Part shown: piece by piece, positions 2,725 through 13,454 of the stretch
How the letters are laid out: each line of letters opens with the position of its first letter
Numbering within the stretch: the first letter of the stretch is position 1
Virus genome (UHGV): UHGV-1763989
Source: a virus
Length of the DNA: 13,792 nt
Strand: one strand, 5' to 3'
Notes under the pieces: generated by a model
Seen by the model: only the letters and a program-made list of their open reading frames with translations
Databases searched by the model: none
What the model was told of the DNA's origin: nothing
Position numbers and translations under genes: made by a program

Positions 2725-2924
2725 CAGAACACCTTTTTAATTAATTGATAGATCAGTACAAGAATCGACAGTACCAAGTAAAAAGGCCAGAAGATCGTGA
2801 TTAGCACAAAACAAATTATTTGAATTTTCCAACCCGGGTTAATTCGTGTTAATTTTGCATCAATGTAATCTAATAATGCATTCAGAACACCCAGTATCAG
2901 ATACAATGACAATAATTTAATCAT
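2724..2924 (-). CDS. Small hydrophobic membrane protein (66 aa, two predicted TM segments)
   Basis: Sequence is almost entirely hydrophobic (LLSLYLILGVLNALL ... IICFVLITIFWPFYLVLSILVLIYQLI); ATG start, coupled to neighbours. Confidence 0.6.
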   Translation of the reverse strand: MIKLLSLYLILGVLNALLDYIDAKLTRINPGWKIQIICFVLITIFWPFYLVLSILVLIYQLIKKVF

Positions 2925-3085
2925 TTCTTTTTACTCCCGGTTAGTTTAGCAATCCAACGATTTTCATTAACGCTGGGAAAACTGTTATTGAACTTACACT
3001 GACGTTCTTCTTCTTCTTTTGTCAACGGTTTAAATTTAGAACGACAGGTCAATGTACCGTAAATTGATGTTAAGTTGTCTGACAT
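2921..3085 (-). CDS. Unlisted small ORF (54 aa), hypothetical
   Basis: Hand-translated: ATG 3085..3083 with AAAGGAG 9 nt upstream; stop TGA overlaps next ATG (ATGA at 2924..2921); MSDNLTSIYGTLTCRSKFKPLTKEEEERQCKFNNSFPSVNENRWIAKLTGSKKK. Confidence 0.45.
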   Translation of the reverse strand: MSDNLTSIYGTLTCRSKFKPLTKEEEERQCKFNNSFPSVNENRWIAKLTGSKKK

Positions 3086-3088
3086 AAA

Positions 3089-3277
3089 CTAGTCTCCTTT
3101 AGTGCGCAGGTGGTTTTTCCAGCGGTTTTGCGCCGCGCTGGGCTTTTTGCAAAAACCACAATCCATCATCCCGTAATATTTTATTAACCCCATTCGTCGG
3201 TTGCTGAGTCTCACCCACTGCCAGACGCCGGGACCGTTTCTACGAACTAACAGAATCTTTGCTTTACGGTTTTTCAT
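3089..3277 (-). CDS. Small basic protein (62 aa), hypothetical
   Basis: ATG start; 4-nt overlap with ParB-like gene stop; Arg/Lys-rich. Confidence 0.5.
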   Translation of the reverse strand: MKNRKAKILLVRRNGPGVWQWVRLSNRRMGLIKYYGMMDCGFCKKPSAAQNRWKNHLRTKGD

Positions 3278-4041
3278 AACCGGTGCTCCTTCAGTGCTTT
3301 TAACGCTTCAAACTGTTCAGCAGTAAGTTCAACCAGGACTTTACCACCTTCCTGGCGGGTTGCAGACCATTCACCACGGATTGCTTCCACTGCAGACCGT
3401 ACCAGTTTAGCGGGTGGACGACGCGTGACTACAGGTTCTTTATCACCTGCTTTAAACTGGCGAATGGCTGCTGATGCGCTGATTTCACCATTCTGGATCC
3501 GGCGTTTAAGTTCCAGCGGCATATCAAGAATATTCAGTTGTTCGTAAACGTGCTGAACGGTTTTACCGACCTGTGTAGCGATCTGCTCAACACTCATGCC
3601 ATATGAACGGAAACGACCGTAAATAACAGCACGTTCAACAGGGGACCACGGTTTACCTTCATTACCTTTTAACAGTGTCAGGGTCTGTTGTAGTTCGTCA
3701 CCGGACGATTCAACAACATCTACTGTCAGAATCGGCGTCCCGGCTTCAATAGCTGCCAATACGCCACGTAAACGATGCTCACCATCCTGGACATACGGAA
3801 CACCGTCAACAACCTGTACCACGATGGGTGGAACGAAATCGCCGTTGGTATAAGCCTGACGAAAGTTTTCAATGTGTGCCAGTGCTGCTTCAGTTTCCCA
3901 GTAGTTGTCGGTAAACACACCGCGTGGGTTATGTCCTGGACGAATCTTGATAATACGCGGATCAATGCGATATGCGTTACCACGTTTTACGTTGGTTTTA
4001 TCGGTATCAGACAGCTTGCGAAGGGAGTTAATGTTAGCCAT
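3274..4041 (-). CDS. ParB-like N-terminal domain protein with HTH
   Basis: ParB-box-like IRPGHNPRG and VQDGEHRLRG (cf. GERRxRA), followed by HTH-like MSVEQIATQVGKTVQHVYEQL. ATG at 4041; own promoter upstream. Confidence 0.8.
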   Translation of the reverse strand: MANINSLRKLSDTDKTNVKRGNAYRIDPRIIKIRPGHNPRGVFTDNYWETEAALAHIENFRQAYTNGDFVPPIVVQVVDGVPYVQDGEHRLRGVLAAIEAGTPILTVDVVESSGDELQQTLTLLKGNEGKPWSPVERAVIYGRFRSYGMSVEQIATQVGKTVQHVYEQLNILDMPLELKRRIQNGEISASAAIRQFKAGDKEPVVTRRPPAKLVRSAVEAIRGEWSATRQEGGKVLVELTAEQFEALKALKEHRL

Positions 4042-4047
4042 TTGTGT

Positions 4048-4076
4048 TTAGCCTCATGTGTGTTAACTGAGGCTAA
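4048..4076. promoter_or_regulatory. Perfect 9-bp inverted repeat (TTAGCCTCA-N11-TGAGGCTAA), candidate operator
   Basis: Arms 4048-4056 and 4068-4076 are exact reverse complements; lies between the predicted -10 and the ParB-like start codon and covers its GAGG ribosome-binding site. Confidence 0.5.
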
Positions 4077-4115
4077 TTATCGGGGAGGTTTGGTAATCTG
4101 TCAAGAATTATTTTA
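4076..4115 (-). promoter_or_regulatory. Sigma70-like promoter with A/T-rich upstream element (internal promoter for ParB-like gene)
   Basis: Minus strand AAAATAATTCTTGACAGATTAC: -35 TTGACA (4104..4099), 17-nt spacer, -10 GATAAT (4081..4076). The 22-nt element is identical to the copy at 11014-11035. Confidence 0.6.
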
Positions 4116-4508
4116 AGGATATGGAACCCACACAGTTAAACCAGCTTTCAACATGCGACGATGCATATCAGCAGTACCACGCCCACCGGGGAACACAACA
4201 CCGTATGTAGGACGTGGCTCACCCTCTAACATCGCCTGATTACGTTGATGACCTGCAACAGCGTTATAAGCCCCGTGCTTACCCTGTTTTACAACCGCAC
4301 CAGGTACAGTCAGATCGTCCCACGCTGCCGGGCAACTACGCACAGGAATACCGTGTAATTGCGCCCATTGCTTACACAGGTTATCAACACCTGACGCACC
4401 ACCTTCAATTAGTTCGGTAACCGGAAATTGTTTGTGAAGTAGTCCTAACGCGGAAAACACTGCTGTTCTGTCGTTAAAGTCACGACCACCTGTGACGACA
4501 ATTATCAT
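4113..4508 (-). CDS. DUF2493-like protein (SLOG/LOG-like Rossmann fold)
   Basis: IIVVTGGRDF ... EGGASGVDNL ... GIPV ... VVFPGGRGTADM matches the DUF2493/SLOG pattern (GGR near N-terminus, PGGxGT near C-terminus). ATG start; ATGA overlap with next gene. Confidence 0.75.
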   Translation of the reverse strand: MIIVVTGGRDFNDRTAVFSALGLLHKQFPVTELIEGGASGVDNLCKQWAQLHGIPVRSCPAAWDDLTVPGAVVKQGKHGAYNAVAGHQRNQAMLEGEPRPTYGVVFPGGRGTADMHRRMLKAGLTVWVPYP

Positions 4509-5185
4509 TGTTTATTAGCCTCAAATACAGCGCGAGCAAAACCACGCGGGGTTAATGAACGTAACTGTTTAGTTGTTTCAGACTTACCACCCAGATATTT
4601 CCAGCCCCAGAAGAAACCAATATTAATCGGTCCAGGACGTTTTTCAGGCATTCTGAAACCGTTACCGAACCACAGACATGTTTTCTTCGTGTATCCGTCA
4701 AACATCGGCATTTTAGGGTGAAAAGGTTTATCATCTGTTGTCATATAACCGCCATATTCCCACGGATGAAAATAAGCGTCAGGTGTCCCCATCATTTCAG
4801 GACGTGATAAAGCACCGACAGGGTTTTCGACCATCCAGGGTACATCATAACGTTCTCCAAGTTCCCGGATTAGTTTTGCGTTTGCCAGTGCATACTGTAG
4901 TTCAGCGTCATCCCGGTCATGTTGTGAACCGCTTTGAGCAAACAGGGTGCAATCCGGGAAACCAAAAATAATCGACGGTAAAGGTGTTCCCAGTATTTCC
5001 TGCTTAATTGCAAATTGTGGGTCAATCCACTGATTAACGTAATGAAGATTGGGGTGATCAGCTTTAATAAAATATTCCCCGTGATTAGCGGAATCAGCAT
5101 TAAAACAATAAACCTGATAACCATGTATCGCCCACGGTAAACCCATAATCCCGGAACCGTCGAACAATGACCAGACAATTTTCAT
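4505..5185 (-). CDS. DNA (cytosine-5)-methyltransferase-like protein, atypical and short (226 aa)
   Basis: SLFDGSG (motif I-like, res 6-12), FGFPDCTLFAQSG (motif IV-like, PDCT in place of PCQ, res 77-80), MVENPVG (motif VI-like ENV, res 120-122); spacing parallels M.HhaI-type enzymes, but no obvious target-recognition domain. Confidence 0.65.
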   Translation of the reverse strand: MKIVWSLFDGSGIMGLPWAIHGYQVYCFNADSANHGEYFIKADHPNLHYVNQWIDPQFAIKQEILGTPLPSIIFGFPDCTLFAQSGSQHDRDDAELQYALANAKLIRELGERYDVPWMVENPVGALSRPEMMGTPDAYFHPWEYGGYMTTDDKPFHPKMPMFDGYTKKTCLWFGNGFRMPEKRPGPINIGFFWGWKYLGGKSETTKQLRSLTPRGFARAVFEANKQ

Positions 5186-5677: not shown

Positions 5678-8032
5678 CTAACTATTACTCGCAGGTGGAA
5701 AAGGCACTACATTAGCTGTTGACTGAAAAGGGAGAAGACGAATACCCCTGAAACCGTTTAGTCGAACGTTATTTATATTAACAACGTCTTTTTTCACTTT
5801 ACCACGAAGGGTGGATTTAAACGCCCGACTAAATGCAGTTTTAGTCATTGCTGGACCACCTTCCTGTGTTTTCCAGAGACGATAACGACCATAGAGTTCT
5901 TCAGTGTGCACCTCACCATCAGATACCAATTCGCAACAATCTCTGATAAAACTTCTAAGTGGTGATTGTTGATCCATAATTTCCTGACGTTCTTCCAGAC
6001 TTGCTTTTGGTTCAGTAAACCGTCCGTTTGCACGTAACCGTTGTAAACCTTCAATCGCCCAGTTACAGATCCCCGGTAGTTCTTTCATCAGTCGTGCTTC
6101 CAGAGTGGTATCTTCACGACCCAGGAACGAAATGTTGAACGGCAGGATCAGCAAACGGTTAGCCATTGCACCGGAATCATCAGCAAATGCAGGTATGTTG
6201 TTAGCAGCCAGTGTCATACGTCCAGGTAAACGACCGTTCCATGCACCTTTATACTTACGATTAACCGGAATCGCATCACAACCTGTAATAGATTTGAAAC
6301 GGTCCAGAATTCGGTTGCGGTCAGGCCCGGACACACTGTGAGCATCACCAATAAACAGCACAGATTTATCCAGCACAGTTTCAAGTACCGCATCACTGGC
6401 TAAACCCTCCAGTGTGATCCCTGCATACGCTTCATCACCTACCAGTGCCTGAATGATGCGACCAATCGTACCTTTACCGGAACGTGGCGCACCAATCAAC
6501 AACATCGCTTTCTGATAGTCGTACGAGTTGACAAGCATGTAACCCAACCATTCCTGCAACAGTGCAATACGTTCCTGATCACCTTCCAGAGTTGTATTAA
6601 GAAACTGTTCAAATGCTGGCGCACGGGCAAACGGATCGTAGCTATACGGTAAAATACTGGTCGTAAAGAAATCAGGGTTATGTGCATCACATTTACCCGT
6701 GTGTACATCCAGTATCCCGTTCTGACAAACAATATAGTGTGATACATCAACGCCGGGCCATGTTCCAAGCTCACGATCAGCGCGTGTGAATAAATACGAC
6801 AAAACCTTGTACGTACCGTTAATTACGTCAGCTTTTGGTTCGCTGGCGAGCATTGCCATAGATATCTGATGTTTCAGTTCATCTTCACTCACACGTTCCC
6901 ACACGCGACCGTTGAACCGGTACGGCTGTTGCTGGACAAAAATCAATGTGTTGTTTGGATAATAGTTATTAACGAACGTGGATGCGTTAACCGTATGGTT
7001 TGAACCATATGCACCTTCACCGGGTTTCACACTCATGTACGCAGGTGTTCCACCATTAGGAACGACGGTAGGCGCTGGTGTGACTGCTTTCATCAGTTCT
7101 GGTGTCATTGTCGGTTGACTACGATACACAGTATCACAACGTTCCACAGCGCCCAAAATCGTGTTTTCACGGTAATCCTGACGATCTGTCCATTTACCAC
7201 GAACCAGCCCAGAACGGTTAAACAAACGTTCAATACGTTCGCAATCTTTCCCTGTCCAGAACGCAAGGTGTGAGCACAGGGCAGCATCAGCGGCAGATGC
7301 ATTGTAGTCTTTTCCCTGGTCGCTGGGGTATGACACAGACAGGCGTTCAACGTTTGCATTCCACAGATCTGCAAATGACGCTTTATTACCAAATACTGAA
7401 GCAGCACTGGACGAATTTAACGCCATTTTAATCAGTTCATCATCGTCTGCCGGACCTGACCAGTCATCACAGGGTGCTGTTGTCCAGCGTGCGGAACGGT
7501 CTGAACGGATACGACCATACCGGGCAATAGAATCATGAATGCCCTGGGTATAATCAATATCAACATCGCCATTACCCGTGAGCGTCATCGCGACGAAACG
7601 ATCACGCCAGTACATTTCCAGCCCGGTTTTCTGGTCGTTCAGACTGTTAAAACCTTCCGGTATGCTGGTATAAGCACAGATGATATGCAAACCTGTTCCT
7701 GACTGGCTGACTTCAGTGTAAGCATTTGGAAAACGGTTTACGAATTCATGCGCCAGTGGTGACCATGTGGCTGTTGCCTGATCTACCAGACAGTTATCGA
7801 CATCAATAAAGAAATAAGGGTCATTTTCTGTGAATACAAAACCAACACCAGACATGCCGTACATTTGCGCCATACCTAACGCGGTGTGATAGTCAGACCA
7901 GTCGTTAGGGTTAGTGGTACTGGCTTTATAACCGTGTACCGGGCTGTATGGTACTTTCGTTGGTTTTGGACGATCGGCAACTGTCTCAAGTCGCCACATG
8001 ACCCACTGTTTACGGTTCAGTAACCCTTTCAT
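5678..8032 (-). CDS. DNA primase-polymerase / D5-type SF3 helicase fusion (784 aa)
   Basis: N-terminus has primase-polymerase-like features (KVPYSPVHGYKAST ... GVGFVF ... FFIDVDNC); C-terminus has Walker A GAPRSGKGT and Walker B-like VLFIGDA. ATG at 8032. Confidence 0.85.
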   Translation of the reverse strand: MKGLLNRKQWVMWRLETVADRPKPTKVPYSPVHGYKASTTNPNDWSDYHTALGMAQMYGMSGVGFVFTENDPYFFIDVDNCLVDQATATWSPLAHEFVNRFPNAYTEVSQSGTGLHIICAYTSIPEGFNSLNDQKTGLEMYWRDRFVAMTLTGNGDVDIDYTQGIHDSIARYGRIRSDRSARWTTAPCDDWSGPADDDELIKMALNSSSAASVFGNKASFADLWNANVERLSVSYPSDQGKDYNASAADAALCSHLAFWTGKDCERIERLFNRSGLVRGKWTDRQDYRENTILGAVERCDTVYRSQPTMTPELMKAVTPAPTVVPNGGTPAYMSVKPGEGAYGSNHTVNASTFVNNYYPNNTLIFVQQQPYRFNGRVWERVSEDELKHQISMAMLASEPKADVINGTYKVLSYLFTRADRELGTWPGVDVSHYIVCQNGILDVHTGKCDAHNPDFFTTSILPYSYDPFARAPAFEQFLNTTLEGDQERIALLQEWLGYMLVNSYDYQKAMLLIGAPRSGKGTIGRIIQALVGDEAYAGITLEGLASDAVLETVLDKSVLFIGDAHSVSGPDRNRILDRFKSITGCDAIPVNRKYKGAWNGRLPGRMTLAANNIPAFADDSGAMANRLLILPFNISFLGREDTTLEARLMKELPGICNWAIEGLQRLRANGRFTEPKASLEERQEIMDQQSPLRSFIRDCCELVSDGEVHTEELYGRYRLWKTQEGGPAMTKTAFSRAFKSTLRGKVKKDVVNINNVRLNGFRGIRLLPFQSTANVVPFPPASNS

Positions 8033-8209: not shown

Positions 8210-8697
8210 TGTTTAATCCATTTTTCAAATTGTGAAGGATGAGTGATGAAACGAAATTCACCACCTGCGTTTTCAACAATCGCACCGAAAGTGGCCTGTG
8301 CTTGTGCACGTCTGTCACTCGGGGTCATGTGCCAGTCAGGGCGTTTCATTTCGGCAGCAATAAAGACACCCACTTTCGAACCGATCATATCCGGTGTAAC
8401 GATTTTGGTTTTAATGCCGATGTAGTCGCTTGACTTCATAACAGCGTTGATTTTCGCACTGGTGTTACCAAGACCATAACGAACCATCATTCCTTTTTCG
8501 TTTTTCAGAGCACCTGAGTTATTACGCCAGATACGTTGCCCTGCGCGTGCCGCAATCAGTTCACACTCTTTACTGGTGGCGCTTTCACTTACACCGTCTT
8601 CGTGTGGTGTTCCATCAGGCTGATAAAGCGCGTATAACTCGTACAACGCCATCTGACTAATACCGTGACGAATCGCCCATTGTTCAAGCGTTGTCAT
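8206..8697 (-). CDS. PD-(D/E)xK nuclease, VRR-NUC-like
   Basis: WRNNSGAL ... SDYIGI ... GVFIAAEMKRP fits a D...ExK arrangement seen in VRR-NUC-type phage nucleases. ATG start; ATGA overlap with exonuclease stop. Confidence 0.65.
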   Translation of the reverse strand: MTTLEQWAIRHGISQMALYELYALYQPDGTPHEDGVSESATSKECELIAARAGQRIWRNNSGALKNEKGMMVRYGLGNTSAKINAVMKSSDYIGIKTKIVTPDMIGSKVGVFIAAEMKRPDWHMTPSDRRAQAQATFGAIVENAGGEFRFITHPSQFEKWIKQ

Positions 8698-9200
8698 AAT
8701 GTTTTAGTCCCACTAGTAAGATATTTAATCTGGTGTAAACAGTCGTCTAACGCATTGTGGTAAGTACCGTCACGGGTAAATTCTTTCGGGTTAATACCCA
8801 GCAAATCAACAGCGGTACGAACATCACGGACGTTCCAGAACTTCCACGGGCAACGAACACCAATCGCATTAAACCATGCTTCCAGAATAGTGATATCGAA
8901 TGTGGAACCATTGCCCCACGGTTTAGCATCGTGCCAGATGAATTTGGCAAAATCTTTAGCAACCTGAACAGGATCGGCAGTACCACCAAAAGCATCTTTT
9001 TGTGCTTGTTCTGACTGCTGCGACCACCACTTCATAGTGTCAGGGTCTGTGTGACCGTAAGCGAGCGCATTAAAACCCATTGATGCGTAAAACGTTTCAC
9101 CAATGTTACCCTGACGATCAAAGTAAACAGCGCCAATTGACAGCACTGCACAACCTGGTTTAGTACCACACGTCTCAATGTCAACCATCAAATCACGCAT
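8694..9200 (-). CDS. DnaQ-like (DEDD) 3'-5' exonuclease
   Basis: Exo I motif MVDIETCG near N-terminus and Exo III-like YHNALDDC near C-terminus; ATG start with AAGGA upstream. Confidence 0.8.
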   Translation of the reverse strand: MRDLMVDIETCGTKPGCAVLSIGAVYFDRQGNIGETFYASMGFNALAYGHTDPDTMKWWSQQSEQAQKDAFGGTADPVQVAKDFAKFIWHDAKPWGNGSTFDITILEAWFNAIGVRCPWKFWNVRDVRTAVDLLGINPKEFTRDGTYHNALDDCLHQIKYLTSGTKTL

Positions 9201-9214
9201 TACAGTTCCTTACG

Positions 9215-9241
9215 TTTAAAATATTTCTATGCAGATTACCA
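9215..9241 (+). promoter_or_regulatory. Degenerate copy of the repeated promoter element, opposite orientation (function unclear)
   Basis: AAAATATTTCTATGCAGATTACC matches AAAATAATTCTTGACAGATTAC at about 18 of 22 positions but has TATGCA in place of TTGACA and no convincing -10; sits in the 41-bp gap between helicase and exonuclease genes. Confidence 0.3.
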
Positions 9242-10909
9242 TCAGATTAATGAACTTGCAACCCTTGCGGCGAGTTCATTAGCTTCACGAGTACGTAACC
9301 CCTGAGCGCTAAGTACATCAACACCAAACACCCTGTAAAACATCTTGTAAGCGTCATCAACGGGTATACCTTTATCACGCTGAATACCCGCCCATGTGGT
9401 GATCATACTGCGTAATTTACGCTGTGCATCGTTCATTGCCTGAATGTTTTTCATTGCACTGTAAGCTGCAATAGGGGGTGCACCAGCGTTTAACATTTGT
9501 TCTTTTACTGCAACAGGGTCACGGTCGATTATCACCACTGCCCGGCGTAATTCTTCCAATTCTTCAGGTGTCAGTTCACGTAAATTACCTTCTACACGAT
9601 CCGGGCCTGAGCGTTCGGCTTTTTCAGGAATATGACCACAATACGGGCAGCACGGAAGACCAGACGGATAAGGCTTCAGACACGGTGGAATACCATTATC
9701 AGGATCACCCTTGTTTGTACATGTTGTATTACTGTTCCCACTGCTGTTAGATGAACGACGATCACGGTCATCTAAAGACCAGTTGTAGTGCTGATCGGGA
9801 AGTGGAAAACCACGGGCCAGAAATCGACGAACATTACCGACTTTATCAATAATCAGTGCTTTTTTACCGGGTTTGAAACGCAATGGTCGACCCATCTGTT
9901 GTACAAACAAAGAGTAAGATTCTGTTGGACGGTCCATTACAGCGCATTCCATCGCCGGGCAATCGTACCCTTCACCGAATAAATCGTTGTTACATAGCAC
10001 GAGTGTTTTACGTCGTTCAAAACGTTCCAGAATATCCGCTCGTTCCTGATTGCTGTTTCGTGAGCTGATCGCCTCTGCAGGAATGCCAGCATCGCGAAAT
10101 TCTTTTGCGAGTGCTTCAGCAGAATCTACGTCACACGTAAACACAACAGTGAGTAAACCGTCTGCGTACGTTTTCCACGTACTGACGGTATCACCAACGA
10201 TGTTTGAATCTTCCATCGCTTTTTTTAACGCAGAGGGTTTGTAATCACCCGTAGTATGGGAAATCATTTCTGCAGTTAATTCCAGGTCTGTTTCAGCCAT
10301 GATCAGGCGATAATCAGCCAGGTGTTGTTGGCTGATTAACTCACGCATTGATGGACCGATGATCATCTGATCTGCGTAACCTGACGCATGACGACCCAAG
10401 CCTTTACCGTCAGCACGGATCGGTGTAGCTGTAACACCCAGACCTTTAGCGTTAGGGAATTTTTCCCGGCAGTCTCCCCACTGTGTGCCACGTACCAGGT
10501 GATGCGCTTCATCGCTGAATACAAGAGACACGTCGTTGTACCATCGTTCGTACTGTTTTGTTCTTAACGTTTGTGAACTGGTAATAACGATGTCAGCGCC
10601 GGGGGAATAGGTACTGTAACCAAGCGTTTTCATCTGCTGATTAGTTGCAAACTTAACAGTATCTTTTTGCGCTATAAATCTGTGTGGTAATCCCTGGCGA
10701 GCAACAGCCATTGCGATTTGACTAACCAGTTCTTTACGGTGTGCCTGGATGACTTTTACACCGTCGGATTTTACCAGTTCTGCAAGCGCTCGGGTCTTTC
10801 CTGCACCCGTGGGAAGTACAAGAATCACGTCATCAGCACCGTTCGACCATGCCTGGCGCACGTTGTTAACGGCATCTTGTTGATAGTGACGAAGTGGTTG
10901 TTGACTCAC
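9242..10909 (-). CDS. SF2 DEAH-box helicase with C-terminal Cys-rich extension (555 aa)
   Basis: LRHYQ, Walker A VLPTGAGKT, Walker B FSDEAHH, motif III TATP, motif VI QQMGRPLR; C-terminal CLKPYPSGLPCCPYCGH cluster. GTG start at 10909 with AAGGAAAG upstream, no in-frame ATG nearby. Confidence 0.85.
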   Translation of the reverse strand: MSQQPLRHYQQDAVNNVRQAWSNGADDVILVLPTGAGKTRALAELVKSDGVKVIQAHRKELVSQIAMAVARQGLPHRFIAQKDTVKFATNQQMKTLGYSTYSPGADIVITSSQTLRTKQYERWYNDVSLVFSDEAHHLVRGTQWGDCREKFPNAKGLGVTATPIRADGKGLGRHASGYADQMIIGPSMRELISQQHLADYRLIMAETDLELTAEMISHTTGDYKPSALKKAMEDSNIVGDTVSTWKTYADGLLTVVFTCDVDSAEALAKEFRDAGIPAEAISSRNSNQERADILERFERRKTLVLCNNDLFGEGYDCPAMECAVMDRPTESYSLFVQQMGRPLRFKPGKKALIIDKVGNVRRFLARGFPLPDQHYNWSLDDRDRRSSNSSGNSNTTCTNKGDPDNGIPPCLKPYPSGLPCCPYCGHIPEKAERSGPDRVEGNLRELTPEELEELRRAVVIIDRDPVAVKEQMLNAGAPPIAAYSAMKNIQAMNDAQRKLRSMITTWAGIQRDKGIPVDDAYKMFYRVFGVDVLSAQGLRTREANELAARVASSLI

Positions 10910-10950: not shown

Positions 10951-10990
10951 AAAATAGTTCTTGACGTATTGCAACTTATTCCTCTAACAT
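10951..10990 (+). promoter_or_regulatory. Sigma70-like promoter (upstream member of a tandem pair for the rightward genes)
   Basis: AAAATAGTTCTTGACG: -35 TTGACG 10961-10966, 18-nt spacer, -10-like TAACAT 10985-10990. Confidence 0.5.
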
Positions 10991-11013
10991 CTGCATCAAC
11001 GAAAGGCGAGTGT

Positions 11014-11053
11014 AAAAATAATTCTTGACAGATTACACAACACCTTTTAAAGT
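11014..11053 (+). promoter_or_regulatory. Sigma70-like promoter with A/T-rich upstream element (rightward genes)
   Basis: AAAAATAATTCTTGACAGATTAC: -35 TTGACA 11025-11030, 17-nt spacer, -10-like TAAAGT 11048-11053; AAGAGGA ribosome-binding site then ATG at 11086. Confidence 0.6.
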
Positions 11054-11085
11054 TAGCGATAACCAAACAACAAGAGGAAAACGTA

Positions 11086-11856
11086 ATGTTCGAAGTTAAA
11101 TTACTTGTAACTGCTCCGGGTCTGGAAACTGCGATCAACAATCTGGCAAATGCTATTGCGACTGGTGCTGCACCACTCATGACTGCTCAGGATGATGGTA
11201 TCACTAAAGAAACCGTGACAGTCGTTGCTGAATCACTGCCTGTTGTATCAGCAACAACTGAAGATATTGACGATAACGAAACCAGCACTGAAGAGTTCGA
11301 CAAATGGGGTTTGCGCCACGATCCACGTATCCACACTGACAGTAAATCCCTGAACAAAGGTGATGGTCTGTGGCGTCAAAAGAAAAAACTGGATGAAGCG
11401 TTTGTTGACGGTGTTAAACGTGAACTTATTGCTGAAGCAGTTGAAGCAGGGCGTTATACCGGACCTGCAGAACTTGCACCGGGTTATGTAGCACCTGTTG
11501 ATCCTGCTCCAGCGGTTCCTGCCGCTCCGGTAGCTCCAGTTGTACCAGCAGCACCGGCTGCACCAGTCGCGCCTGTCGAGCAACCTGTAACCACGGATCC
11601 AGCTAAAGTTTATAATACCCAGGTTCTTCAGTCAGCACTAATGCAGATGTTTGGACAAATTACGGGTGACCGTGCCGCGCCATTAAGTCAGCGAATCATG
11701 GGACTGTATGAAACTCAGAACGTGATGCAGATTGACGACCCAGTAAAACTGAAATCTATCATCGAACTGATTGAACGCATTAACGCGGCCCCGGCTGATG
11801 CTGAAAACATTGTTGGTCAGGCTGAATCTGTTAAACAAATGGGTGGGGCATTCTGA
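11086..11856 (+). CDS. Hypothetical protein with central Pro/Ala/Val-rich linker (256 aa)
   Basis: ATG with AAGAGGA upstream; two regions separated by APVDPAPAVPAAPVAPVVPAAPAAPVAPV. Function not recognised. Confidence 0.7.
   Translation: MFEVKLLVTAPGLETAINNLANAIATGAAPLMTAQDDGITKETVTVVAESLPVVSATTEDIDDNETSTEEFDKWGLRHDPRIHTDSKSLNKGDGLWRQKKKLDEAFVDGVKRELIAEAVEAGRYTGPAELAPGYVAPVDPAPAVPAAPVAPVVPAAPAAPVAPVEQPVTTDPAKVYNTQVLQSALMQMFGQITGDRAAPLSQRIMGLYETQNVMQIDDPVKLKSIIELIERINAAPADAENIVGQAESVKQMGGAF
11491..11590 (+). repeat. Imperfect tandem repeat encoding the Pro/Ala/Val linker
   Basis: Reiterated gc(a/t)cc(a/g)g(c/t)(t/a)g units (e.g. gcaccggctgcaccagtcgcgcctgtc) inside the 256-aa CDS. Confidence 0.5.
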
Positions 11857-13016: not shown

Positions 13017-13454
13017 ATGGCACAGAAAGAATCTTTTGTAACTCCGGTTGGTCGTCTGGTTGGCGGTTCTTTTTTCGATATCAACACCCATGACCACGAA
13101 AACAAACCGTTAGCACCTGAAAAACACAACTGGTGGGTTGGTCTGGCGTTTCCTAAAACAGCGGCGAACTGGTGGGAAGAACAAGGTGAACTGGGTGCGG
13201 TATTCCAGGCGATTATGCGAGCGGCTAATTCACACTATGTGAATGGCGAACCACAACAACCTACTTTCGCATGGAAAATTATTAACGGTGACGACCCGAA
13301 ACATGCGAGTAAAACTGGTTATGCTGGTCACTGGGTAATTGGTTTCTCACGCAACGTGGCTATTGACGCGTGTCCGGTTTATAACGCAGCGTACCAGCCA
13401 GTTATTGATAAAAATCTGGCGAAAAAAGGTTATTACGATGTTAAAAACATTTGA
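13017..13454 (+). CDS. DUF2815-like protein (putative phage ssDNA-binding protein)
   Basis: N-terminus FVTPVGRLVGGSFFD ... WWVGLAFPK resembles the DUF2815 pattern; lies immediately after the DUF2800 gene, a pairing known from other phage replication modules; AAGAAGG upstream. Confidence 0.7.
   Translation: MAQKESFVTPVGRLVGGSFFDINTHDHENKPLAPEKHNWWVGLAFPKTAANWWEEQGELGAVFQAIMRAANSHYVNGEPQQPTFAWKIINGDDPKHASKTGYAGHWVIGFSRNVAIDACPVYNAAYQPVIDKNLAKKGYYDVKNI

Follow-up and report, generated by a model that had tools for sequence, protein, structure and literature searches.

We analysed a parB-like gene and the leader in front of it in a 13,792-nt stretch of the virus genome UHGV-1763989, referred to below as the window. 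The window comes from a virulent siphovirus of the 9NA/Sasha type: its nucleotide identity to the Sashavirus genomes BDX09P1, PJ16, PDP46 and Sasha is 96%, and the IMG/VR contig UViG_3300014770_000007 is 100% identical across ParB and 140 nt upstream. A gap of 71 nt separates the ATG of parB from the stop codon (4113) of the gene before it, which encodes a SLOG/YAcAr protein. The gene is already labelled ParB-like in public records, and the arrangement of hairpin and promoter described here has a classical precedent. The features of the gene, its leader and its protein product are the following (ORF, open reading frame; SD, Shine-Dalgarno sequence; HTH, helix-turn-helix):

4076-4114, minus strand: promoter P_parB, with a UP-like/-35 motif AAAATAATTCTTGACA (4114..4099), a 17-nt spacer and the -10 hexamer GATAAT (4081..4076)
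4068-4076, minus strand: 5' arm of an inverted repeat (UUAGCCUCA in RNA), anti-SD; its first base is the last T of the -10 hexamer
4048-4056, minus strand: 3' arm of the inverted repeat (UGAGGCUAA) with the SD GAGG (4055..4052), followed by 6 nt (4047..4042) and the ATG at 4041
3274-4041, minus strand: parB-like coding sequence, ATG start, 255 amino acids (aa) plus stop; the exact limits of the ORF were re-found
3982-4041, minus strand: aa 1-20, conserved N-terminal peptide M-x-N-I-N-S-L-R-K-L...
3667-3981, minus strand: aa 21-125, ParB/Srx-type N-terminal (nucleotide-binding) domain
3922-3930, minus strand: Box I-like N38-P39-R40; among 99 diverse family members R40 never varies and N38 hardly varies
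3772-3783, minus strand: Box II or P-motif G87-E88-H89-R90 (GxxR); G87 and R90 are invariant in the same 99 members
3652-3666, minus strand: degenerate Box III G126-N127-E128-G129-K130 (canonical ParB: ENLQR)
3448-3666, minus strand: aa 126-198, HTH DNA-binding domain, of which aa 133-192 are the Pfam HTH_ParB part
3277-3447, minus strand: aa 199-255, C-terminal alpha-beta-beta-alpha module of 57 aa
3089-3277, minus strand: next ORF, 62 aa, PHROG 1380 (function unknown), whose start codon shares ATGA with the stop of parB

The product of parB belongs to the ParB/KorB/Noc family as a divergent orphan. It matches the Pfam domain HTH_ParB (PF17762) at aa 133-192 (E 2e-6; 28.3 bits against a cutoff of 22.6) and PHROG 1033, 'ParB-like partition protein', with E 3e-60. 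A phmmer comparison with Spo0J (1vz0) gives E 3e-7 and aligns aa 53-192, so that the N-terminal domain and the HTH are both represented. A deep homolog search returned 239 representatives at E<1e-30, and 99 of these, 22-91% identical, were used for the residue conservation and for a family profile. Against the PDB chains of Spo0J, ParB, Noc and KorB this profile scores E 1e-20 to 1e-9 (best 1.5e-20), and the matches again cover the N-terminal domain and the HTH. The AlphaFold model has a predicted local distance difference test score (pLDDT) of 81, and its best Foldseek matches in the PDB are KorB 8qa9, Noc 7nfu and ParB 7bm8 (E about 1e-7). An earlier reading of the DNA without database searches (the sequence-only reading) had assigned the protein to the ParB family by its N-terminal domain and named a profile search for ParBc/Srx as the check. 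The family holds, through HTH_ParB, the profile and the structure. The Pfam model of the N-terminal domain itself (ParB_N or ParBc, PF02195) does not match the product even at E<=10; only three of the 99 members match it, against 86 for HTH_ParB. The homology of the N-terminal domain is thus visible by profile and structure alone. TIGR00180 gives E 2e-9 but 37.2 bits, under its cutoff of 58.45, and Pfam KorB (PF08535) gives 15 bits and E 0.025, under its cutoff of 22.3. No DndB or DGQHR-type family matches the product in Pfam, NCBIfam or PADLOC at E<=0.01, though the motif reads DGEHR, and PADLOC gives no defence-system match. Neither a nuclease motif nor a nuclease family match is found in the product, nor the ParA-binding motif [LIFVM]G[KR]G[LIFVM], and there is no ParA-type gene in the window or in the PDP46 genome. 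Homologs of about 30-45% identity are found in Skate/Jersey-like phages, Roufvirus, the N4-like EcP1, Jilinvirus and 7-7-1, all lytic; the distant homologs mostly sit near the head of an early operon.

Looking at the residues separately, R40, G87 and R90 are the only invariant ones over the 99 members, with N38 nearly so. GEHR (aa 87-90) aligns opposite the GERR of 1vz0, 6sdk and 7bnk (Spo0J and M. xanthus ParB), the first Arg being replaced by His. In Box III the close relatives retain the Asn and lose the Glu and the Arg, the Arg position being Lys or variable. Compared with the canonical pocket, R40, G87, R90, N127 and G67 are kept, and Gln is changed to N38, Arg to H89, Glu to G126 and Arg to K130; the roles of the pocket residues in Caulobacter crescentus ParB are taken from PMC8367383. 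Mutation of the GxxR Arg, which corresponds to R104 in PMC8367383, abolishes nucleoside triphosphate (NTP) binding across the fold, and the fold binds CTP, ATP or GTP depending on the family (10.1101/2025.10.10.680097). NTP binding by the parB product is plausible, since the Box I Arg and the GxxR of Box II are kept while other pocket residues differ. Concerning the two ends of the protein, M1, S6 and L10 of the N-terminal peptide are invariant among relatives down to 37% identity; the canonical LG(R/K)GL motif for ParA binding is absent from the peptide, which may serve as a tail that binds a partner. The C-terminal module is modelled at pLDDT 74-82 and, modelled alone, has no structural relative in the PDB better than E 0.8; it is presumed to serve in dimerisation.

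The sequence-only reading had also given the gene a promoter of its own, and the 71-nt gap indeed contains one of sigma-70 type, TTGACA-17-GATAAT. Its hexamers (TTGACA at 4104..4099) agree with the consensus at 11 of 12 positions and are the top sigma-70 match of the window. Such a match alone arises in 25% of shuffles and is not significant, and the promoter call therefore rests on placement, on membership in a 24-nt promoter family and on conservation across differing flanks. The motif AAAATAATTCTTGAC(A/G) of P_parB occurs in 13 copies in the complete PDP46 genome, each of them, according to the PDP46 gene table, just 5' of a correctly oriented gene; some precede small leftward gene groups scattered among the structural genes. 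In full, the phage-wide motif has about 24 nt, AAAATAATTCTTGAC(G/A)(G/A/C)ATT(A/G)CA, followed after 17-18 nt by TAnnnT. The window has copies at -4114, -5658, +10951 and +11015 (the sign gives the strand), and the parB copy has the best -10. The motif contains a partial dyad, TAATTC-TTGAC-GRATTA, centred on the -35, which could be a regulator site as well.

The block of promoter and inverted repeat is conserved in 9NA and in Klebsiella phages (ParB 66-70% identical), where the sequence just upstream has fully diverged and the gene in front is a SLOG, a NADAR, a small ORF or an HNH gene. Of the claim that parB and its upstream sites form a self-contained unit, this part stands: the block travels as a cassette across phages with differing upstream genes. 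The remainder needs correction, as P_parB is one of at least 13 motif copies, drives downstream ORFs too and is parted from parB by another ORF in five loci or phages. No terminator was found downstream of parB, and its stop codon runs into the start of the next ORF; P_parB therefore drives parB and the downstream small ORFs and is not private to parB, and by the same ATGA overlap the 62-aa ORF is co-transcribed and translationally coupled to parB. Altogether, parB is followed by eight or more small ORFs and the gene of an HD_4 protein. In PDP46 and the related loci L011, L014, L027 and L028, an extra ORF (about 77 aa in PDP46) lies between the block and parB. These inserts sit exactly at the parB start codon (L007, from PDP46, 13073-13303; L011 and L014 about 2757-3000; L027; L028); the differing inserted ORFs capture the block of promoter and hairpin along with the opening codons (ATG GCT AA / ATG TCY AA), and parB gets a new ribosome-binding site (RBS). 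The start of parB is a hot spot for recombination.

The palindromic site that the sequence-only reading placed upstream of the gene is confirmed as a perfect inverted repeat between promoter and start codon, TTAGCCTCA / TGAGGCTAA, with 9-nt arms at 4048-4056 and 4068-4076, a gap of 11 nt and 100% complementarity; a perfect 9-nt repeat is expected in 0.08% of random 44-nt leaders. Transcription from P_parB is predicted to start 6-9 nt past the -10, at about 4067-4070, which is the 3' end of the 5' arm. The leader of a read-through transcript folds at -13.8 kcal/mol (z -4.0), whereas RNA from the predicted start folds at -4.2 kcal/mol (z -1.2). For all seven parB promoters, the computed accessibility of the SD rises from 0.00-0.04 in read-through RNA to 0.29-0.63 in RNA from the predicted start; at most other promoters of the family it is about 0.3-0.6 in read-through RNA, and two or three others are predicted to be gated like parB (e.g. 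window +11015 and PDP46 -3595). Among six hairpin haplotypes, 98% of the pair cells are paired, one pair occurring as U-A, U.G or C-G and a second one also as G.U; promoter-anchored pattern scans (seven loci from IMG/VR, four from metagenomes) gained just two new haplotypes. The same hairpin layout is found in 9NA, the Carvaje group and L034 (ParB 78% identical). In L030 and L033 (ParB 49-50% identical), which have their own copy of the promoter motif, the arms are unrelated (GTTTCTTGT / ACAAGAG(A/G)C); the repeat again lies directly after the -10 and its 3' arm again covers the SD. Most likely the inverted repeat acts as RNA, forming a hairpin that keeps read-through transcripts from being translated, and is no operator for a protein; we prefer this reading because the layout recurs with different arm sequence in relatives of 49-50% identity, and because the 3' arm coincides with the SD while the 5' arm falls between the -10 and the predicted start. 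On these folding models, probably only transcripts started at P_parB are translated.

The rival that has to be weighed here is a DNA site: ParB itself, or another repressor, would bind the repeat, which overlaps +1, and shut P_parB in the manner of KorB autoregulation, possibly with loading and sliding of a clamp. The repeat spans -1 to about +28, a classic repressor position, and a two-sided change from TTAGCCTCA/TGAGGCTAA to TCAGCCTCA/TGAGGCTGA preserves its symmetry. In other variants (9NA and PDP46/L028), however, RNA pairing is retained through G.U and DNA symmetry is lost. KorB is the top structural match of the protein, and the outer pentamers TTAGC...GCTAA are the same as the half-sites of the KorB operator TTTAGCSGCTAAA. 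These pentamers, the lone resemblance to OB half-sites, lie 19 bp apart, and the arms are separated by 11 bp (20 bp centre to centre), whereas ParB and KorB sites are contiguous over 13-16 bp; the Pfam KorB score is also against such a kinship. The recognition-helix region differs between the window (GKTVQHVYEQ) and L030/L033 (NMSVGHVYQY) together with the arms, and an operator could have co-evolved with the HTH; in P0003 (L034), by contrast, the recognition helix is altered (TVQTVYNLL) and the arm core is unchanged. The repeat occurs once in about 56 kb and is unique in the genome, and the sole extra half-site found in the window and the complete PDP46 genome is the RBS of the SLOG gene (4523..4515), a third copy of TGAGGCTAA-N6-ATG. 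A DNA site would, moreover, leave as a needless coincidence, in both sequence families, that the 3' arm is exactly the SD and the 5' arm exactly the stretch from -10 to +1. We regard the operator as a possible but unlikely explanation.

Taken together, the locus would encode a partner-less ParB-family protein whose sigma-70 promoter is built into an SD-hiding hairpin, the protein being an NTP-gated clamp or switch made early; we judge the chances of this joint reading to be even. Host sigma-70 RNA polymerase would transcribe parB from a near-consensus copy of the standard promoter motif of the phage. Read-through RNA from the upstream replication and accessory operon would fold into the hairpin of about -14 kcal/mol with its SD hidden, and RNA started at P_parB, which would not carry the 5' arm, would be translatable. 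Since read-through RNA would hide the SD and P_parB RNA would not, the dosage of ParB would be set by its own promoter. The protein may then act early as an NTP-gated DNA-binding clamp or switch, organising or regulating DNA transactions at a putative DNA target as KorB, Noc and HerB do.

Several points weigh against this account. Concerning the hairpin, the covariation is not significant, 91 of 500 shuffles being equally good (with six haplotypes and one compensatory pair), and single mismatches are present in L034 (C-A) and phiKPN_H2 (A-C). The transcription start is only predicted; if it lay upstream of 4076, the hairpin would also be in parB's own mRNA. A weak terminator-like site (4547..4530) might already limit read-through, and P_parB is of the same class as the upstream promoters, unlike the case in T4, which leaves the gain from gating unclear. 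Concerning the protein, the lack of a ParB_N match and the TIGR00180 score below its cutoff count against it. So do the His in Box II and the loss from Box III of the Glu and Arg on which CTP hydrolysis and binding depend in C. crescentus ParB; the protein may bind CTP weakly or not at all, or may bind another NTP in its place. No fold match marks the C-terminal module as a dimerisation domain, and there is no parS-like repeated palindrome in the genome: a search with 8-nt arms, at most one mismatch and spacers of 0-2, in which PDP46 and Carvaje were compared, gave no palindrome that is multi-copy or conserved between the two, save a variant of the promoter motif.

The gene belongs to a long leftward array, which in listed order begins at the helicase and contains upstream of parB:

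9242-10909, leftward array: helicase gene
8694-9200, leftward array: exonuclease gene
5678-8032, minus strand: prim-pol/helicase gene, followed by a promoter, a lipoprotein gene and a small ORF
4505-5185, minus strand: compact gene of C5-cytosine methyltransferase (C5-MTase) type, 226 aa, PHROG 757 (E 1e-78), two genes upstream of parB
4113-4508, minus strand: SLOG/YAcAr gene, directly upstream of parB; its stop lies inside the promoter's upstream motif

The placement of parB inside the replication block, as the sequence-only reading had it, is only roughly correct: parB comes downstream of the genes for helicase, exonuclease and primase and follows an accessory run (lipoprotein, C5-MTase-like, SLOG). 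The 784-aa replication protein at 5678-8032 (minus) consists of an NrS-1-polymerase helix-bundle domain, D5_N and DUF5906 (helicase), which makes it a prim-pol/helicase fusion and not a classical DnaG-type primase. The C5-MTase-like protein is much shorter than standard C5-MTases. Motifs I (LFDGSG), IV (FPDC) and VI (ENP) are visible by eye; no Pfam, NCBIfam or PDB match was found for it, and elsewhere it is annotated as a C5-cytosine methylase. Its gene is patchy in 9NA-like phages and is missing, for example, from AVIO78A. The SLOG/YAcAr gene lies zero to two genes upstream of parB throughout the 9NA supergroup (window, L001, L029, L030, L033), and in some relatives NADAR and Nmad5 genes are added. 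SLOG/YAcAr, NADAR and Nmad5 are predicted conflict domains of NAD+/ADP-ribose or nucleotide modification, probably counter-defence cargo; a functional link between SLOG/NADAR and parB was considered and rejected, the adjacency being judged synteny of the 9NA supergroup. Downstream, the 207-aa protein with an HD_4/HD domain (842-1465, minus), annotated as RelA/SpoT family in PDP46, may be a phage-encoded small alarmone ((p)ppGpp) hydrolase. Further copies of the promoter motif are present on the plus strand. A decayed antisense copy lies at 9205-9241, between the exonuclease and helicase genes, and 10951-11090 contains two tandem copies 64 nt apart ahead of a rightward operon. The spacer of the downstream tandem promoter (+11015) contains the anti-SD CCTTTT, and transcripts of the upstream one are predicted to hide the SD of ORF 11086 (accessibility 0.02 against 0.80), which by the folding model would be the same gating idea as at parB.

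The sequence-only reading had held that the role of the protein is not deducible from its sequence, and this is essentially true. With modest confidence, an NTP-gated clamp or switch appears the most likely role, ahead of a partition factor or nuclease. Annotations in the records ('ParB-like partition protein', 'ParB-like nuclease domain') would make it one of the latter two, which is very improbable: the phage group is virulent, ParA and the ParA-binding motif are lacking as described, there are no centromere-like repeats, TIGR00180 stays under its cutoff, and the nuclease label is a legacy Pfam domain name to which no nuclease motif or family match corresponds. A helper role, in which the protein recruits or activates the nearby C5-MTase-like protein on phage DNA, is improbable, though it can draw on gene neighbourhoods: in Skatevirus Bas80 and in KpV2811 the stop of the homolog overlaps the start of a PF00145 C5-MTase gene, L031 and L032 have a DUF4942/MTS methyltransferase two genes downstream, and the window has its PHROG 757 gene two genes upstream. 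Fusions of the ParB fold with MTases, which may recruit or activate in a similar way, are common in phages (10.1101/2025.10.10.680097), and a phage ParB activates its cognate 5mYOX, a T-dioxygenase, on dsDNA (PMC13229309). The 5mYOX-associated ParBs, however, do not have a DNA-binding domain (PMC13229309), whereas the window protein has one, and no dioxygenase is found among the window ORFs scanned. In eight lineages (AVIO78A, EcP1, DS8, Arya, ECOO78, 7-7-1, pIS4-A and OS31) the homolog has no adjoining MTase. In the window, parB is set off from the MTase operon by its promoter and by the hairpin against read-through, and Nonanavirus Bas82 shows marked sensitivity to restriction-modification (PMC11990801).

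The protein might instead work on the host nucleoid as an early reprogrammer of HerB/YfjB type, altering host transcription or nucleoid structure. The precedent is HerB (PMC13370423), a ParB-like orphan that combines a CTP pocket and an HTH with a dimerisation module of a new kind. HerB is produced as soon as the plasmid enters the cell, and the many sites that it binds on the chromosome show no parS-like motif. The strong host-type promoter, the absence of ParA, the family-specific C-terminal module and the absence of a phage parS-like repeat are in line with it. There is, however, no direct evidence for it, HerB is much larger and has extra domains, and the family is spread across unrelated lytic phages of various hosts, which a role centred on phage DNA fits at least equally well; we consider it, too, a doubtful candidate. 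Somewhat less doubtful, and still unlikely, is a wider reading of the family as a whole: the orphan ParB-HTH proteins, carried by the virulent and unrelated 9NA-like, Skate/Jersey-like, Roufvirus, N4-like EcP1, Jilinvirus and 7-7-1 phages, would be a phage-specific class of NTP-gated clamps that act as global regulators at the start of infection, loading either at the promoter motif and tuning every transcription unit of the phage (a KorB-like regulon) or at the host nucleoid (a HerB-like takeover). In both versions read-through would be insulated by the RBS-sequestering hairpin because dosage is critical. In the literature, the papers naming both 9NA and ParB only use ParB-parS as an imaging tool.

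Among the distant relatives, which here are phages of the Skatevirus and Roufvirus types, the ParB-like gene of Bas80 (L035 1504-3110), KpV2811 (L036 1438-3248) and DS8 (L038 683-2688) is the second or third gene past a divergent early promoter. In DS8 its stop overlaps the start of an HNH gene, and a 57-aa ORF and a 178-aa protein with the annotation 'beta clamp domain protein' are found downstream. In L017, L031 and L032 (40-44% identical) a GC-rich hairpin, GCCCCGG-N5-CCGGGGC, lies between the upstream gene and the SD of the ParB-like gene, and the neighbours of the ParB-like gene are thymidylate-synthase-family, dCTP-deaminase and DUF4942/MTS methyltransferase genes, a context of nucleotide metabolism and modification. 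Also, in the N4-like EcP1 a thymidylate synthase gene is directly upstream. In the whole genome of Bas80 (L043) the promoters apparently consist of two copies of the motif TTGAYGTAGAWT, 17 nt apart, the first giving the -35 and the second the -10 TAGATT, with about 10 copies genome-wide; Bas80 thus has its own multi-copy promoter motif, and the comparison is uninformative about ParB.

Proteins of the ParB-CTPase fold with roles beyond segregation are an active field (KorB, Noc, VirB, BisD, HerB and the 5mYOX activators), and the parB locus is a compact example with testable residues (R40 and R90) and a close relative, Bas82 of the BASEL collection, that infects an O-antigen-restored E. coli K-12 strain. 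The cis-regulatory design of parB points to dosage-critical expression. The promoter within the hairpin would be a case of T4-style transcript-specific gating in an unrelated siphovirus with sigma-70 promoters, apparently at several promoters per genome. Should the protein prove to regulate globally or to reprogram the host as a clamp, lytic infection would be added to the known uses of the ParB switch.

With KorB of RK2 and with ParB, Spo0J and Noc, the protein shares the two-domain core, i.e. the ParB/Srx N-terminal domain with GxxR and the ParB HTH, as well as the Box I Arg and the second Arg of Box II; as with KorB and Noc, a role in segregation is not evident. It differs from these proteins in the pocket (GERR to GEHR, ENLQR to GNEGK), in missing the thresholds of ParB_N, KorB and TIGR00180, in a C-terminal module unrelated by fold search and in being encoded by a virulent phage. 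Unlike for KorB and ParB, neither a ParA/IncC partner and ParA-binding motif nor a multi-copy 13-16-bp palindrome was found. HerB/YfjB is similar as an orphan with pocket, HTH and a non-canonical C-terminal module and without a parS-like motif; it differs in its length of about 650 aa, its extra domains and its canonical Box II and III, which bind CTPgammaS (PMC13370423). The ParB activators associated with 5mYOX are likewise phage-encoded and ParA-less, with a DNA-modification gene nearby in several lineages; they do not have a DNA-binding domain and pair with an adjacent Fe(II)/2OG T-dioxygenase (PMC13229309), whereas here an HTH is present and a dioxygenase is undetected in the scanned ORFs.

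Concerning the leader, a similar hiding of the RBS is the 'fold-back inhibition' of IS10 and IS50. The closest comparison is with the T4 genes e, soc, 49 and I-TevI, where the RBS is sequestered in a transcript-specific manner (PMC3014915). As at those genes, the SD at parB is predicted to be hidden in long transcripts, and a promoter placed at the 5' arm would give an arm-less, translatable RNA; the internal promoter here is of sigma-70 consensus type, the same class as the upstream ones, and not a late promoter as in T4.

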